Shown: positions 2,923 to 17,282, counted from the first letter of the stretch. The stretch is DNA of 20,000 nucleotides from an uncultured virus (IMG/VR IMGVR_UViG_3300032053_000046) (IMGVR_UViG_3300032053_000046), one strand, 5' to 3'. Numbers and translations are program-made. Notes: generated by a model from the sequence alone, not told the origin.

Positions 2923-3444
2923 ATGTCAACGAGAGCGGTGATGATTGGTCTGCTTGTTGAGTCGGATGAGGACAAGAAGGGGCTTTACGGCGGTTTTGTT
3001 GAGTTGGGTTTTACTTCTCCGAAGATCATTCACCAGTTTAATACTATGCCCGGAAAGGGTGGTGAAGGTGGACGAAGTGATGTTCTTGTTGAGTTTGATG
3101 ACAAGGATATTCCGAAGCTCGCCATACATCCAATGCATCTTCAGGGTGGTTTTTCTTGGGATGATGATTATTTTCGGAATAATCGGGAGTTGATACCTTC
3201 CGAGTCTCTTCAGTATTTTCAAAAACAAGTGACTGAGGAGTCTCCGAAGGTAGAGGTTTTGAAGCCTGAGTGTAAGCTGCTTGAGGGTGATGGTAATGTG
3301 TTTGTTCTTGCCGGGAAGGTGGGTAAGACTCTCAATCGGGCTGGTCTTGGTGATAGGGCAGACGAGTTTTACGAGAGGTTGCCAAGATGTGACGGGTATC
3401 ACGAGGCAATAAACCTGATGAGTGAGTACGTTGAAATCGTATAA
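2923..3444 (+). CDS. two-domain hypothetical phage protein (173 aa)
   Basis: AAGGA RBS; the C-terminal KPECKL.xDGNVF..EYVEI module resembles a widespread small phage/mobile-element domain of unknown function. Confidence 0.8.
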   Translation: MSTRAVMIGLLVESDEDKKGLYGGFVELGFTSPKIIHQFNTMPGKGGEGGRSDVLVEFDDKDIPKLAIHPMHLQGGFSWDDDYFRNNRELIPSESLQYFQKQVTEESPKVEVLKPECKLLEGDGNVFVLAGKVGKTLNRAGLGDRADEFYERLPRCDGYHEAINLMSEYVEIV

Positions 3445-3445
3445 C

Positions 3446-3616
3446 AAGAGAAACAAGTAATAGGGTGTGGCAAAGGTGGGAACATTGTTGACTGCCATCT
3501 TTCGGGATGACTTTCAGCACTTTTTGAGGGAACCCTTTCTTGTCTGCAAAGTGCAAACCAGCTTCCGATAATGTAGGGAGTAAACGTGCAGAACCCTGTT
3601 ATCTTGTTTCTTTTTT
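3446..3616 (+). ncRNA. putative structured ncRNA 4
   Basis: About 21-bp terminal stem 3446-3466/3593-3614 (one bulge); inner helices AAAGGTGG/CCATCTTT, CGGGA/TTCCG and GCACTTT/AAAGTGC; U-tail. Confidence 0.6.
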
Positions 3617-3633
3617 GATTTTGGAGGATTTAT

Positions 3634-3814
3634 GCTACTTCATTGAATATTGAGATCGTTCACGTAGGAGCTTTACATCTTTGGACGGCTTCGGGCTAAC
3701 AAAGTACAGGGAGCGTTATGCTCTGTACCTAAAAAAGCCCCTGTGTAACGGCAGATTATGGTAGACTGTTCTCTTTTCCGAGGATACCGTGCATGGAGTC
3801 TATCGTCGGGTAGC
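3634..3814 (+). ncRNA. putative structured ncRNA 5
   Basis: GCTACTT/GGGTAGC closure; GGGCT-bubble-GTACA..GAGC/GCTCTGTAC-bubble-AGCCC arm; ATGGTAGACT/AGTCTATCGT helix enclosing two short hairpins. Confidence 0.45.
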
Positions 3815-3820
3815 TGAGAA

Positions 3821-3870
3821 AGGGGTGGAGGGAATGACCCTCTGCCCCTCACTTTTTCTTTTCTTTTTTG
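3821..3870 (+). terminator. intrinsic terminator
   Basis: AGGGGTGGAGGG-aatga-CCCTCTGCCCCT hairpin followed by a long T-rich tract. Confidence 0.75.
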
Positions 3871-3906
3871 TGAAATATTCGTATTGTTTTATAGGGAGGT
3901 AGGATT

Positions 3907-4825: not shown

Positions 4826-6043
4826 ATGCCAAAGAATGATCCGTCTGTTGTGCCTCTCAAGTCCATTTTGTCTCTTATTGGTCTTGGTGGTGCTTTGTTG
4901 ATTGCTTTGGTTGTTGCTCTTAACATTGTGGGGTTCAATAAGGCCGGTGAGTTTGTGATTGTGCAGGATCTTGGTGGTGCGCTTCATGTAAAGACAACGG
5001 CAGGGCCGTATGGGAAATTTCTTGGTCATGTGGATGTGTACCGTCAGGTAGTGACAGTAGTTTTTGGACAGGCACCGGGACACAAGAGTTTTGAGGCTGA
5101 TGAAGTTCCTGTTATTTTCAATGATGGTACTCGTGCTTTGATCCGTGCTCAACTTCGTGTTTCTCTTCCGTCAAATTCTGAACAGATGAAGGCAATTAAA
5201 AGTCAGTTTGCCGGAGGGTTTGAGCATCTTGTGAGTAACGGCATTGTGCCTGTAGGTGCGAATGCAATTAAACTTTCAGCGAATCTTCATTCAGCACGAG
5301 AGGCTTATACTACTCTTGCTGTTTTGCAGAGTGAGATTGAGGATCAGTTGATGTATGGTACTTATCAGACACGTTCTGTTGATAAGTGGATTCATAGGGC
5401 TGTAGGTGATTCCGAGCGTGTACGAATGACTGAGATTGTGCTTGACAGTACGAATAAACCACTAAGAAATCCTACAGTTTTGGAGCAGTTGGGGTGTCGA
5501 GTAACGCAGTGTCAGATTGACGTACCGAAGTTTGATAATGCAGTGGATGATATGATTAAGAAGCAGAGGGATCAGACATTGCAGACGGAGGTAGCGAAGC
5601 AGAACGCTATCCGTGCGAATCAGGATAAGTTGACTGCGGAAGCTGAAGGTCTTGCTGCTGTGATGAAGGTGAAGTATCAGAAGGAGCAGGAGAAACAAGC
5701 AGCGGTAACTGATGCTGAGAAGGAAAAGGCTGTTGCTTCTTTGATGCGGGATGCAGCGGAGTTTACAAAGAAGAAGCTCATTTTGGAGGGAGAGGGTGAA
5801 GCTGAAAAGCGTAAGTTGATTATGTCAGCGGATGGTGCTTTGGAGAAGAAGCTCGAAGCATACAAGGCTGTTCAGCAGATGTGGTCAGAGGCTTTTTCAA
5901 AATATTCAGGTCAGATTGTTCCGACTACGGTGATGGGTGGGTCGGTTGGTGGTGGAAATGGTGCTACGAACTTCATGGAGATTATGACTGCGAAGGCGGC
6001 GCGTGATCTGTCTTTGGATTTGAGTGTTCCCGGTAAGAAGTAG
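4826..6043 (+). CDS. SPFH/band 7 (prohibitin/flotillin-like) membrane protein
   Basis: N-terminal TM helix, SPFH-like core, long Ala/Glu/Lys coiled coil (AEAEG, EGEGEAEK), Gly-rich tail. Confidence 0.85.
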   Translation: MPKNDPSVVPLKSILSLIGLGGALLIALVVALNIVGFNKAGEFVIVQDLGGALHVKTTAGPYGKFLGHVDVYRQVVTVVFGQAPGHKSFEADEVPVIFNDGTRALIRAQLRVSLPSNSEQMKAIKSQFAGGFEHLVSNGIVPVGANAIKLSANLHSAREAYTTLAVLQSEIEDQLMYGTYQTRSVDKWIHRAVGDSERVRMTEIVLDSTNKPLRNPTVLEQLGCRVTQCQIDVPKFDNAVDDMIKKQRDQTLQTEVAKQNAIRANQDKLTAEAEGLAAVMKVKYQKEQEKQAAVTDAEKEKAVASLMRDAAEFTKKKLILEGEGEAEKRKLIMSADGALEKKLEAYKAVQQMWSEAFSKYSGQIVPTTVMGGSVGGGNGATNFMEIMTAKAARDLSLDLSVPGKK

Positions 6044-6110: not shown

Positions 6111-6623
6111 ATGAAGAAGTTGGTTAATATTCCAGATAAGATCCTGGATAAGAAGATTGACAACAGTGCAAAGCGTATAGCTGATGATTTTGTTGCTACA
6201 AAGAAGGATAAGGCAGTTGTTTTTTGTGAGTTGTTTGCTCAGGGGAAACGTCTTGGGTTGGAGACACCAGAGCAGACCAAGGATTTTCTGAAAAGGTACA
6301 AGTACGTCTCTTTTGGGTGTTTGTCAGATATTCAGGAAGCAACGGAGTTTTTGAAAAAGCAGAAGGCTGTAGAGGAAAACTCTTCTGATGATCTGATTAA
6401 GTGGCGGCAAGCTGTACGGGAGAGACTTATTTCTGGTAGGAAAGTGATTGATGCCCTTGATGTGGATGCAATGCAGAGGAAGAGGTTGTATTATGATAAG
6501 AGGAGAAAACTTTTTGCCAAAAGGCAGAAGGATATTGATTGGTATAATAAGGTCAGTATTGCTCTTGTTAAGAAGATCAAGGGGATGAAGTCTTTTGAGC
6601 GGTTTGATCTTGACCAGTTCTAA
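6111..6623 (+). CDS. basic helical hypothetical protein (170 aa)
   Basis: ATG 6111 preferred to TTG 6096; Lys/Arg-rich. Confidence 0.75.
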   Translation: MKKLVNIPDKILDKKIDNSAKRIADDFVATKKDKAVVFCELFAQGKRLGLETPEQTKDFLKRYKYVSFGCLSDIQEATEFLKKQKAVEENSSDDLIKWRQAVRERLISGRKVIDALDVDAMQRKRLYYDKRRKLFAKRQKDIDWYNKVSIALVKKIKGMKSFERFDLDQF

Positions 6624-6656
6624 TACAAGGATTATCACCTACACTGAGGAGGGGCT

Positions 6657-6938
6657 ATGGTAGCGTCTGTTAATTCGTGGCTTGTGCGGGAGAAGCAGCT
6701 TCGTGGCCGGTTGTCTGAGTTGGTCAACATGAAGGGTTCTTTGACTTCCCGTACATCTTATTACGGGGATGACAAGAAAATTATTGAGCCTACCTATGAT
6801 GTTAAGAAGGTAGACAGGCTGACAACGGATCTTCAGAACGCTCTCTTTACGATTGAGAATGCAATCAAAGAGTCCAATGCAAAGACGATGGTTGATGTTG
6901 ATGTGGATTGTGCCTCTCTGATGAAGCCGATTGAGTAG
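6657..6938 (+). CDS. half-length DIP1984 (DUF6847)-like coiled-coil protein (93 aa)
   Basis: GAGGAGG RBS; the pattern L..EK.LRGRLSEL...YY....IIEPTYDVKK......L...L..IE.AI..SN..T.V resembles, by eye, the C-terminal repeat of DIP1984-family proteins. Confidence 0.6.
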   Translation: MVASVNSWLVREKQLRGRLSELVNMKGSLTSRTSYYGDDKKIIEPTYDVKKVDRLTTDLQNALFTIENAIKESNAKTMVDVDVDCASLMKPIE

Positions 6939-6955
6939 GTGTACGTGGGATAATG

Positions 6956-7137
6956 CGGGATAGACGGCAAGGGTGACAGGGCTTGCTTTGTTGCCGGGGA
7001 ATTTCCTTTACGTCATGGTTGTGGCAATGTAGGGCTATATTTATCTTGTTGTTGCTGACCTTACATACACAAACCTTCATTGGTTGTTGTTAGTTGTTGT
7101 ACTTAGGATTTCCCAACTTGCCGTCTTCCCGATTTTT
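6956..7137 (+). ncRNA. putative structured ncRNA with UUG-repeat loops
   Basis: Terminal stem CGGGA.AGACGGCAAG/CTTGCCGTCT.TCCCG plus U-tail; inner helices ATGTAGGG/CCTTACAT, GGTTGTG/CACAAACC and TGAC/GTCA; TTGTTG runs in unpaired parts. Confidence 0.65.
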
Positions 7138-7164
7138 GTTGTGTAGGTGTGATAGACTTTACCA

Positions 7165-7353
7165 ATGAACGACTCCCCTGATTTTGTTGTTGAAAACTCT
7201 GAGACTTCTCTTGACCTTTCTTCAAAGGCATTAGACAAGAGACGGGAAATTGCTATTGACATTGTGAGACTTCTCATGGATAATCTATATAAGATGTCAA
7301 TGGTGAGTCTTTTGGTCGTGTATAGAGAACTTAAAGGGAGGGTAGATGGGTGA
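7165..7353 (+). CDS. hypothetical protein (62 aa)
   Basis: ORF overlaps the start of the next gene; weak RBS. Confidence 0.55.
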   Translation: MNDSPDFVVENSETSLDLSSKALDKRREIAIDIVRLLMDNLYKMSMVSLLVVYRELKGRVDG

Positions 7354-8173
7354 CGGTCTTACAGACGCAAGAGTCCATAGGGATAATCCTACTATCGGGT
7401 TGACTTTCAAGGAGCAGACAGGTTGTGGGTCATCTTTTTTCTCTATCAAGTTTAATTGGCATGATAAGGTGAAGCTGGTCGAAGTGTTTTGTGGGTCATC
7501 TTCTAAGGGCGGGTGTTCTTCAAATACAAAAATGACGGGGCGGCTTGTCTCTCTCGCTTTACAAAACAATGTCCCTATTGAGGAGATTTTGGATCAGCTT
7601 GAGTCTGAGATATGTCCTACGGCTCGGTATCGTGCAGGGCGTGATGAGGGGTTTAAGAAAACTGGAAATAGTTCTTGTAGTAAGGCACTTGCATCTGCGA
7701 TACGAAAGACTTTACAAGCGCAAAAGTTTTTTGAGGATCATCAAGATGAGTTGAGGGCGATTTTTTCATCCGTAGATGATTTGCGAGGTAAGACCGTAGA
7801 ACTTGCGAAGGATAGGATCGAAAAATCAAGATTGTCTGAGATTTTTGAGAAATCAGAACCGTTTGATGTGTTGCCAGAGGATCTTCTGGTGGATCTTCCA
7901 GCGGACATGAGTGTGGTCAAAGACAATGTTGCTGGAGTGAAAAGTTTTGAAATAAGTGACATTCCTGTAGGATCTCCTTTGTTGGAACCTATTCGGTTGA
8001 GTCAGGCGAAGGAGAGAGCAAAGTTTTTTACGGCTGGTGTGCCCTACGTTGGTGATGAGGGCAAGGGTGAGGATTACTGGATACAGCGGGGGTTATGCCC
8101 TGAGTGTCGGGCTGCGTTGGGGCATGAGGAGGGGTGTGTGATCTGTAGGCGGTGCTCGTTCTCCAAGTGCTGA
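7346..8173 (+). CDS. TSCPD-domain protein (class II ribonucleotide reductase C-terminal/NrdJb-like) with terminal zinc ribbon
   Basis: TGCG, EVF...SKGGC, GRLVSLAL..VPIEEILDQL...CP and SSC..ALA motifs; C-terminal CPEC...EEGCVICRRCSFSKC as in NrdJ tails. Confidence 0.85.
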   Translation: MGDGLTDARVHRDNPTIGLTFKEQTGCGSSFFSIKFNWHDKVKLVEVFCGSSSKGGCSSNTKMTGRLVSLALQNNVPIEEILDQLESEICPTARYRAGRDEGFKKTGNSSCSKALASAIRKTLQAQKFFEDHQDELRAIFSSVDDLRGKTVELAKDRIEKSRLSEIFEKSEPFDVLPEDLLVDLPADMSVVKDNVAGVKSFEISDIPVGSPLLEPIRLSQAKERAKFFTAGVPYVGDEGKGEDYWIQRGLCPECRAALGHEEGCVICRRCSFSKC

Positions 8174-15766: not shown

Positions 15767-16879
15767 TTGAGTTTAACTATGTTAAGATCAACCAAACACA
15801 TTTTGAAGTATCAAACTGGCACTAAATCTAAGCAATTAGACCAGTTATTTCAGGATTATAAGGTTGACTTACAGTTTTATGTGGATCAAATTTGGGATAA
15901 GAAACTTCCACTGAAGAAATTTCTATCTACGAAAGATTGTCCTTCAAATATACTTACACATTCAACATGGAAGTCAGCACTTTATAAGCAAGCATCTGGG
16001 ATTATCAGATCCAATAAGGAAAAGAATAAAAAGTCAAAGCCGGAAATTAAGAGTGTCTCAATTTCTTTGAATGAGTATTTGTTTGACATCGAGTTTCAAT
16101 CTTCCGGTCATTTTGACGAATTTATCCGTATCCGGTTGCCCTATTTTCAGGATGGTAAGCATCGAGCAGTCACAATAAACTTACCGATCAAGTATCACAA
16201 GCATTATCTGAAGTACGCTGATTGGAAGCGTAAGAAGAACATCAAATTAGTAAAAGACAGTGATGGCAAGTATTTTGTGTTTTTGACTTTTGAAAAAGAG
16301 GCACCTGTAATAAAGACTGTTGGTAAATCTTTGGGTATTGATATTGGTTACAAGAAACTTCTTTCAACTTCCGATGGTCAGTTCTTGGGAACCGATATTG
16401 AGAAGGTTTGCACAGATATATCAAAGAAGGTAAGGAACTCTAAGAACTTCAAGCAGAACTTGAGGTTTCGAGATAACGAAATTAACCGAGTTGTGAACGA
16501 GTTAGACCTGTCAAACGTAAACAGCCTTGTCATTGAAGACCTAAAGAATGTGAAGAGAAATACCAAGAAAGATCATCGAGTTTTGACAAAGTTTATGAAC
16601 AAGTTACAGTATTGGGTCTATTTAGCGGCAATAGGTAAGCTGGTGCGAGCTTGTGAGGAGAACGGTGTTCTTCTTACAAAGGTCAATCCAGCTTACACTT
16701 CCCAGACTTGTTCAGTGTGTGGATCAATACACAAGGAGTCTCGTGTGGGCGAGCGGTACAAGTGTATTGATTGTAAAGTGGAGATGGACGCGGATTATAA
16801 CGCAGCCATTAACATTTTGCACAGGGTGGCTAAAGAACCCTGCCAGAAAAGTCTGTCCACTATAAACTGTGGAGGATAG
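15767..16879 (+). CDS. tnpB: TnpB / Cas12f-like RNA-guided endonuclease (IS200/IS605 family)
   Basis: RuvC-I LGIDIG, RuvC-II VIEDL, PAYTSQTCSVCG...CIDC zinc finger, RuvC-III DADYNAAINI; start may be ATG 15779. Confidence 0.93.
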   Translation: MSLTMLRSTKHILKYQTGTKSKQLDQLFQDYKVDLQFYVDQIWDKKLPLKKFLSTKDCPSNILTHSTWKSALYKQASGIIRSNKEKNKKSKPEIKSVSISLNEYLFDIEFQSSGHFDEFIRIRLPYFQDGKHRAVTINLPIKYHKHYLKYADWKRKKNIKLVKDSDGKYFVFLTFEKEAPVIKTVGKSLGIDIGYKKLLSTSDGQFLGTDIEKVCTDISKKVRNSKNFKQNLRFRDNEINRVVNELDLSNVNSLVIEDLKNVKRNTKKDHRVLTKFMNKLQYWVYLAAIGKLVRACEENGVLLTKVNPAYTSQTCSVCGSIHKESRVGERYKCIDCKVEMDADYNAAINILHRVAKEPCQKSLSTINCGG

Positions 16880-16883
16880 GCAT

Positions 16884-17282
16884 TTGAGCCGATTGAGATT
16901 GAAAGTTGATTCCAGCAAGTCAAGTCAGGTCTTTCACTGTATCGTGAAGGAATGGCACTATCTCCTGTACTGTAAGGAGACTGATTCTGTGCAGGTTGCG
17001 GCAAAGGTAGGGGATAGTAGTGTGTGTCTGTCAGTTCCCAAGGGAGTTTTTGATAAGATATTTGAGCCTACAGCTACATCTTCTCTTGGTGCTTTTATCA
17101 AGAAGAAGATGGCTAAGTTGGGTTACTCTCAGCATGACTTAGCTTTTCAAAGTGGTGTAACTCAGATGGCAATATCAAAAATTATCAGGGGTGTGACGCG
17201 GGGGGTTAATTCAGCGACTCTATCGAAACTTGCGGTAGGGTTAGGAGTGACTGAGGATGACCTAAAGAAAACAATGGAATAA
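16884..17282 (+). CDS. XRE/Cro-C1 helix-turn-helix transcriptional regulator
   Basis: C-terminal LG.FIKK....LGYSQHDLA..SGVTQ.AISKI.RG......TL.KLA.GLGV; TTG start 8 nt after GGAGG (track start 16869). Confidence 0.85.
   Translation: MSRLRLKVDSSKSSQVFHCIVKEWHYLLYCKETDSVQVAAKVGDSSVCLSVPKGVFDKIFEPTATSSLGAFIKKKMAKLGYSQHDLAFQSGVTQMAISKIIRGVTRGVNSATLSKLAVGLGVTEDDLKKTME

Follow-up and report, generated by a model that had tools for sequence, protein, structure and literature searches.

A conserved structured RNA with unpaired UUGUUGU motifs follows the gene for a small helical-hairpin protein in uncultured tailed phages

The stretch of DNA analyzed here (the window) comprises 20,000 nucleotides (nt) of an uncultured virus (IMG/VR IMGVR_UViG_3300032053_000046), a large tailed phage with nearly all of the window's long open reading frames (ORFs) on the plus strand; the nearest record, a virus contig of 167,660 nt that has direct terminal repeats, is 100% identical across the 801 nt compared. 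An ORF at 6657-6938 (+), from an ATG at 6657 to a TAG at 6936-6938, encodes a 93-residue protein, P0001, and is preceded by a strong ribosome-binding site (GAGGAGGGG, 6646-6654). Eighteen nucleotides past its stop codon begins a structured RNA element of approximately 175 nt (6956-7137, +), which extends from a closing helix to a U tract. This RNA is conserved, its helices covary, it folds on the sense strand, and it is tied to the P0001 gene family and to no other neighbor. We are highly confident that gene and RNA constitute a real conserved cassette, and this cassette matches no described system.

The RNA element combines its closing helix with a three-way junction and an inner hairpin and leaves UUGUUG runs unpaired; the helix coordinates (all plus strand) are taken from the sequence, the minimum free energy (MFE) fold, and an alignment to the family covariance model R1 described below. 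In both the MFE fold and the model alignment, the closing helix P1 pairs 6957-6971 with 7117-7130 (CUUGCCGUCUUCCC) through 14 base pairs and one bulged U, and C6956-G7131 adds a further pair. It is followed by P2 (6972-6995), a hairpin made of GGUGACAGGG, a CUUG loop, and CUUUGUUGCC with four G-U pairs, and then by the 5′ strand of P3 (GGGGAAUUUCC, 6996-7006), which pairs with 7106-7114 (GGAUUUCCC); both are present in the MFE fold and align to the corresponding model helices. The P5 hairpin (7027-7066), supported in the same two ways, is formed by 7027-7034 and 7059-7066, and its 24-nt loop holds the unpaired block A (CUUGUUGUUG, 7045-7054), which aligns to an invariant UUGUUGU of the family. 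Block B (UUGGUUGUUGUUAGUUGUUGUA, 7080-7101), likewise unpaired and featuring the U/G run UUGGUUGUUGUUAGUUGUUG (7080-7099), corresponds to the family blocks B1 and B2 according to the model alignment and the family consensus. Beyond P1, a G and an A lead into UUUUU (7133-7137), a possible transcript end. The fold of 6939-7145 has an energy of -68 kcal/mol, compared with -54.7 ± 4.0 kcal/mol for shuffled sequences (z -3.35), a value equaled by 1 of 200 shuffles.

A preliminary description of this region had proposed an element of about 180 nt after the stop codon, closed by a stem and U-tailed, and all of its helices are indeed present; a long-range pairing suggested there (6996-7004 with 7106-7114) is helix P3 of the family model. 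Of the three U/G runs that it took to be unpaired, two are so, whereas TTTGTTG (6987-6993) is the paired 3′ strand of P2. Two coding interpretations of the region were considered and rejected: the frames of a small hydrophobic peptide ("LLLIV") read from the UUR blocks vary among loci, with stop codons directly upstream and without a start codon, and the frame past the TAG of P0001, which stop-codon read-through would use, ends after 4 codons.

Model R1 was built from four similar aligned loci (L032, L041, L037, and L030) in which P1, P2, P3, and P5 were annotated by hand. The window, which was not part of this seed, is matched at 6962-7128 (+) over the full model length with 37.8 bits and an E value of 2.9e-8. 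On the nearest whole genome the model finds one significant copy (E 2e-8), the next match having an E of 0.3, and across 85 sources its 23 hits at E ≤ 0.01 lie without exception on the plus strand after the gene. Covariation was assessed on the 12 best nonredundant members, again leaving the window out. Among these, 86% of paired cells hold a base pair, compared with 60% in shuffles and 42-51% when partners are slid by 1-3 columns, and 41 of 45 pairs show compensatory changes on both sides. The first family helix (P1) is 94.8% paired, with all 12 of its pairs changed on both sides; the second (P2) is 90.7% paired; and in helices 5 and 6 compensatory change is found in 11 of 11 pairs. The slid-partner control and the independent closing-helix statistic given below agree with this covariation.

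All 38 UURUURU heptamers in the 12 aligned members lie in unpaired columns. The family consensus begins with P1, a UAGG junction, the P2 hairpin, a YYGAAAAG junction, and P3, and continues with P5, which has a bulge and a loop containing UUUGUUGUURAU and is followed by CAAAG. Next in order are block B1 (UUGUUGUUGU), a hairpin that varies among members, and block B2 (UUGUUGUAAC); the 3′ strands of P3 and P1, which run on without interruption, complete the 3′ end, and a U-rich tail often comes after them. The architecture of the family is thus a P2 hairpin that branches from the three-way junction, one UUGUUGU block in the P5 loop, and one or two further unpaired UUGUUGU blocks before the 3′ strands.

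Conservation was also evaluated independently of the model across loci collected by small-alignment scans, namely, 17 distinct viral loci, 1 from a bacterial metagenome-assembled genome (MAG), and 67 from metagenomes, one of which is the window's own contig. TTRTTR hexamers occur on average 4.3 times in the 330 nt after the gene, compared with 0.79 times per 330 nt before it, and at least three lie downstream in 62 of 75 loci. Downstream of the gene, the heptamer TTGTTGT is enriched 27.6-fold, and 38 of 65 loci contain it. A closing helix enclosing UUR repeats, defined as an uninterrupted helix with a score of at least 8 that starts no more than 40 nt from the stop codon, spans 120-260 nt, and contains at least two UUR repeats, is found in 53 of 65 nonidentical loci, compared with 6.2% of dinucleotide shuffles and 1 of 53 upstream controls. 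In these 53 loci it begins a median of 11 nt past the stop codon (range 3-35), spans a median of 192 nt (family range 127-255), and is a median of 11 bp long (8-22), and the helix sequences are all different. The test put forward in the preliminary description, that a covarying RNA with short U/G repeats should follow homologous genes, therefore came out in its favor.

The sense strand of the nearest record is rich in G and T (T 31%, G 26.5%, C 15%), and one could ask whether strand bias and a fortuitous fold together produced the element by chance. The data refute this, and we give it a negligible probability. The 226 copies of TTGTTG on the sense strand of the 167,660-nt record average 0.31 per 230 nt, and the only stretch with at least five is the RNA locus, with eight copies; within the window, the 226-nt bin densest in both TTG and GTTG starts at 6971, with 18 TTG (mean 7.3) and 11 GTTG (mean 2.1). 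The element is kept in loci of 27-49% GC content, and the independent model hit, the covarying helices, and the frequency of the closing helix add to the case. The TTG runs are accordingly not an artifact of the G/T bias, which bears out the preliminary description on this point. Tandem Repeats Finder returned no arrays in 6600-7400 at a score of at least 30, so the UUG runs represent short motifs rather than tandem units. A further TTTTGTTGTTG run lies at 7181-7192 (+), just inside the next ORF (7165-7353), and the U/G cluster reaches about 50 nt past the U tract.

The cassette is flanked by recombination or replication genes in 8 of 16 viral loci, including genes for a gp32-like single-stranded DNA-binding protein, a UvsX-like recombinase, exonucleases, a Sak4-like annealing protein, an SbcD-like nuclease, and NinG/Rap. 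In 11 of 60 loci the flanks contain tRNA genes, almost always on the same strand, and in L026 and L082 the cassette is inside tRNA arrays; in L012, a tRNA stands between the gene and the motif cluster. L026, a 176-kb viral contig, carries a bacterial class-A RNase P RNA at 724-1023 (+; 179.6 bits) in a 22-tRNA array, and the P0001-family gene and its RNA occupy the center of this array, next to the phage-encoded RNase P RNA. The P0001 family is the only gene family common to 16 loci compared by BLASTP (1e-4), and the genes after the RNA are mutually unrelated, which shows that the RNA is linked to this gene rather than to the one that follows. The next gene often begins 20-40 nt past the element.

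Such surroundings could also suit a signal acting as single-stranded DNA, that is, a priming or initiation site displaying GTT, or part of an origin, within a replication and recombination module. GTT is the recognition triplet of T4 primase, and in the window a TSCPD-domain protein, a DNA ligase, and an RNase H are encoded nearby, in addition to the flanking genes just described. Against a DNA signal, G-U pairs outnumber A-C pairs 67 to 16 on the sense strand of the gene in the 12 aligned members, which identifies that strand as the one that folds; the element always starts a few bases past the stop codon in the orientation of the gene; and the tRNA genes near it lie almost exclusively on the same strand. 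Since a transcript fits these three features better, we consider a DNA signal very unlikely.

The RNA is absent from Rfam 15, which gave no matches in the window and none at gathering level in 15 related loci. At lower stringency, 6600-7400 yielded only a chance row for a long noncoding RNA (E 7.1), and the 15 and a set of 10 related loci yielded tRNAs, RNase P, and one chance microRNA row, with nothing consistent at E ≤ 1 in the 10. Among the papers listed by a literature search, none mentions UUGUUG together with phage noncoding RNA. RNAalifold on plain MAFFT alignments returned nothing, or P1 alone. Neither blastn of the region nor tblastn of P0001 and P0016 found a match in 50,697 phage records, so that by these three queries no cultured phage among them carries the cassette. 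Single-protein scans of viral contigs gave no match either.

P0001 itself has no Pfam hit, even at E ≤ 10, and no PHROG or NCBIfam hit. A word-indexed search found one close relative only, whereas an exhaustive phmmer search at E ≤ 1e-3 recovered 162 cluster representatives, which with few exceptions are 90-100 residues long. In an alignment of 70 relatives, R18, D53, K71, and N74 are invariant, and an EPxYDVK...AIKxSNA pattern is conserved. Of these relatives, 39 match DUF6847 (PF20935) and 35 match DIP1984_fam (NF038048) at E ≤ 0.1. Among 25 scanned members, nine match DUF6847 at E ≤ 0.01, all on positions 63-141 of the 141-position profile, with 17.4-22.7 bits, under the curated cut-off of 27 bits for PF20935 (that for NF038048 is 70 bits). 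Consistent with this placement, hhalign aligns the P0001 family to residues 74-150 of a bona fide 153-residue DUF6847 protein (E 1.5e-4, probability 51%), and the family profile weakly matches residues 77-153 of 154 in PDB 3kdq_A (E 1.6). In the Atlas, PF20935 is found in 11-20% of members of neighboring clusters. P0001 is not above the membership cut-offs of DUF6847/DIP1984 and, at 93 residues, lacks the full-length architecture of about 141-150 residues. These profile similarities weakly suggest that P0001 is a half-size protein distantly related to the C-terminal half of DUF6847/DIP1984. The preliminary description had likened it to half of an internally duplicated DIP1984 protein. The weak hits of its relatives to the C-terminal half speak for the likeness, but P0001 itself gives no hit, and because only that half aligns, the internal duplication gains no support from the alignments.

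AlphaFold2 with an alignment models P0001 as a two-helix hairpin, with helices at residues 5-29 and 49-76 and a predicted local distance difference test (pLDDT) score of 81; on this model, P0001 is an antiparallel helical hairpin. Its homodimer model has an interaction prediction score from aligned errors (ipSAE) of 0.51, compared with 0.00 for the best of three controls, a mark reached by 20 of 30 proteins solved as one-chain pairs and by 1 of 23 solved as single chains. Contact agreement among runs is at least 98%, and the partner pLDDT is at least 78. P0001 therefore probably forms at least a homodimer, as far as modeling can tell, and the oligomeric helical protein of the preliminary description is upheld to that extent. 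An assignment as UvsY-like was rejected, as the fold rows concerned are weak (E about 0.9-3) and Pfam UvsY matches 0 of 70 members.

Full-length DUF6847 proteins resemble P0001 in being helical, in the weak profile match of P0001 relatives to their C-terminal half, and in the long noncoding stretch that follows the genes examined; they differ in their length of about 150 residues, compared with about 93 here, and their downstream RNAs are not alike. Full-length DUF6847 was found in 4 of 301 Planctomycetota genomes searched, and a long noncoding stretch follows all four genes. In two Planctomycetota loci, L106 and L107, a GC-rich noncoding stretch of about 190 nt downstream of full-length DUF6847 is conserved and ends in a U tract. 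In L104, about 500 nt past the full-length DUF6847 gene on the reverse strand, lie two copies of a noncoding unit, each with a tRNA T-arm-like GGTTCGATTCC, GTTAC/GTTAT repeats, and a U tract. Rfam gave only chance microRNA rows on these DUF6847-downstream stretches and no match at E ≤ 0.1 for the L104 units. Septicolysin, a name that may be linked to the DUF6847/DIP1984 family, occurs in the papers listed as annotation mentions only. In the literature we found DIP1984/DUF6847 named in one paper, where it is simply a hypothetical protein on a plasmid (PMC10889530).

These features suggest how gene and RNA may work together. The RNA would be the 3′ part of the P0001 gene's own transcript, given that the window scan found no promoter-like site between the two and that P1 with its U tract would end the transcript here. 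At the end of the gene, a ribosome would be positioned over the 5′ strand of P1, whose start lies a median of 11 nt past the stop codon, and the new protein would thus emerge beside its own RNA. The unpaired UUGUUGU blocks may represent docking sites for a multimeric binder, most simply P0001 dimers, translated a few bases upstream, and the outcome would be an RNA-protein particle assembled in cis. We rate the chances as even that this two-part cassette of uncultured tailed phages forms an undescribed RNA-protein system. Direct binding of P0001 to the RNA seems to us plausible at slightly less than even chances. The recombination and replication genes and tRNA arrays around the cassette suggest a role in nucleic-acid transactions or translation.

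An alternative that uses the same transcript is a trans-acting small RNA (sRNA) derived from the 3′ untranslated region (UTR), whose G/U-rich seeds would pair with C/A-rich (ACAACAA-like) sites in host mRNAs, the protein being unrelated or a chaperone. Conserved single-stranded UUGUUGU blocks, a position at the 3′ end of a gene transcript with no promoter-like site in between, and a U tract in 19 of 53 loci would all be expected of it. It leaves unexplained, however, why the partner gene family stays constant amid changing neighbors, and three or more identical seeds in one sRNA would be unusual. The sense strand of the phage contains 6 ACAACAA in 167.7 kb, with none seen at a start site, so the targets would have to be in the host. 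We regard such an sRNA as unlikely, though as the most probable of the alternatives. GcvB and DapZ are sRNAs of this type, with unpaired G/U-rich seeds and, in the case of DapZ, excision from a 3′ UTR; there is no sequence or model match to either, and here a multihelix fold of 127-255 nt has a fixed partner gene.

The RNA could instead act in cis as a terminator or attenuator, in which P1 and the U tract terminate transcription and a UUG-repeat binder, such as P0001 acting in the manner of TRAP or HutP, sets read-through. AUUUUU follows P1 in the window, a U-rich tail is present in the 19 loci mentioned above, block B2 lies directly against the 3′ strands of P3 and P1, and the next gene often begins shortly after the element. 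Yet 34 of the 53 loci are without a U-rich tail, the downstream genes are unrelated among loci, and a domain of 127-255 nt within the stem far exceeds what termination needs. In the window, the stem encloses about 145 nt, and a simple terminator scan makes no call. An attenuator is hence improbable in our judgment, more so than an sRNA. TRAP and HutP are oligomers, beta-rich rings that read spaced (G/U)AG or UAG repeats in 5′ leaders and thereby change terminator formation, whereas the candidate here is a helical hairpin and the UUG runs form three blocks 3′ of the gene; in these respects the locus differs from the TRAP-like repeat recognition to which the preliminary description had likened it.

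That description had also drawn an analogy to type III toxin-antitoxin systems, in which the RNA would neutralize the protein. A tight pairing of protein gene and RNA gene on mobile DNA would be in keeping with such a system, but the absence of a tandem array in 6600-7400 and the position of the RNA downstream rather than upstream of the gene are not. The fold searches returned helical hairpins only and no nuclease-like fold, although a missing match does not exclude such a fold, and the Pfam and PHROG scans run gave no PADLOC-type or Pfam toxin hit. The analogy is consequently not supported, and we consider a toxin-antitoxin function very unlikely.

Among other described systems, CsrB and RsmZ come close to the proposed RNA-protein particle in design, as structured RNAs that show several copies of a short single-stranded motif to a dimeric protein. 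Their motif is GGA in hairpin loops, and their partner CsrA comes from a separate locus; the element instead displays UUGUUGU, its candidate partner is the product of the gene directly upstream, and Rfam has no match for it. Rop (Rom) of ColE1 is a small helical hairpin that dimerizes to a helical bundle and binds RNA kissing loops rather than a repeated motif, and homology to P0001 was not detected in the fold searches. The tRNA cluster of phage T4 includes two stable structured RNAs, species 1 and 2, for which no partner protein is known; the element is likewise a phage-encoded structured RNA, near tRNA genes in the 11 loci mentioned, whereas the window contains no tRNA gene.

Several observations weigh against an RNA-protein system of this kind. 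All loci were collected through the P0001-family protein, and the RNA would have escaped notice wherever it occurs without the gene. The helix test is failed by 12 of 65 loci, and no motif cluster follows the gene in the bacterial MAG locus L027 or in L036, L038, and L086. The transcript end is not uniform, the U-rich tail after P1 being found in 19 of 53 loci. Model R1 has hits at E ≤ 0.01 in only 23 of 85 sources, and the covariation alignment was fitted to the model structure and favors that structure. A sequence-only nhmmer profile found 6 nonseed loci and missed the window, which implies that the family is held together by structure and a short motif. On the protein side, P0001 is not basic (14 K/R and 14 D/E), Pfam and PHROG scans identify no known RNA-binding domain in it, and four fold searches (including pdb, viral, and pdb_via_wide) return generic helical hairpins only. 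R1 also has no match among the RNAs after full-length bacterial DUF6847 genes.

A broader and more tentative idea, which we hold with clearly less than even confidence, is that DIP1984/DUF6847-like proteins are an unrecognized RNA-binding class, each encoded beside a cognate structured RNA, in phages and bacteria. The half-size phage version would dimerize and assemble during translation on three UUGUUGU blocks in the 3′ UTR RNA of its own gene. The outcome would be a new kind of RNA-protein particle of viral origin that serves the infection through replication or recombination, through translation, or by countering the defenses of the host.

The remainder of the window encodes an SPFH-like protein, a TSCPD-domain protein, a DUF932 protein, an ATP-dependent DNA ligase, a TnpB-like protein, an RNase H, and a GroES-like protein. 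The SPFH/band-7-like protein (4826-6043, +; 405 residues; phrog_11908) has relatives in crAss-like Bacteroides phages, Vibrio phages, and a 462-kb uncultured phage; the locus with the best relative of this upstream gene, L008, has no synteny to the window. The TnpB/Cas12f-like protein of this phage genome (15767-16879, +) matches PF07282 (E 2.8e-18) and PHROG transposase families and is followed by a helix-turn-helix-domain gene (16869-17282, +). A second structured noncoding element lies at 3446-3620 (+), in the gap 3445-3906, beginning right after the stop codon of the ORF at 2923-3444. Its closing helix, of about 21 bp, surrounds approximately 130 nt and is followed by a U tract, and the fold of the entire gap has a z of -3.45; the preceding protein is unrelated to the P0001 family, and R1 gives no match there.

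The cassette has a small format of 93 residues and about 175 nt. That gene and RNA stay together while their neighbors change is a strong sign of joint function. With its covarying helices and its invariant unpaired motif, the element represents a well-supported family of structured RNAs that Rfam does not include, and the cassette would offer a first functional lead for the DUF6847/DIP1984 superfamily, for which a crystal structure exists. That the cassette often lies among phage tRNA arrays and recombination genes may also be relevant to the stable RNAs of large phages, which have long gone unexplained.

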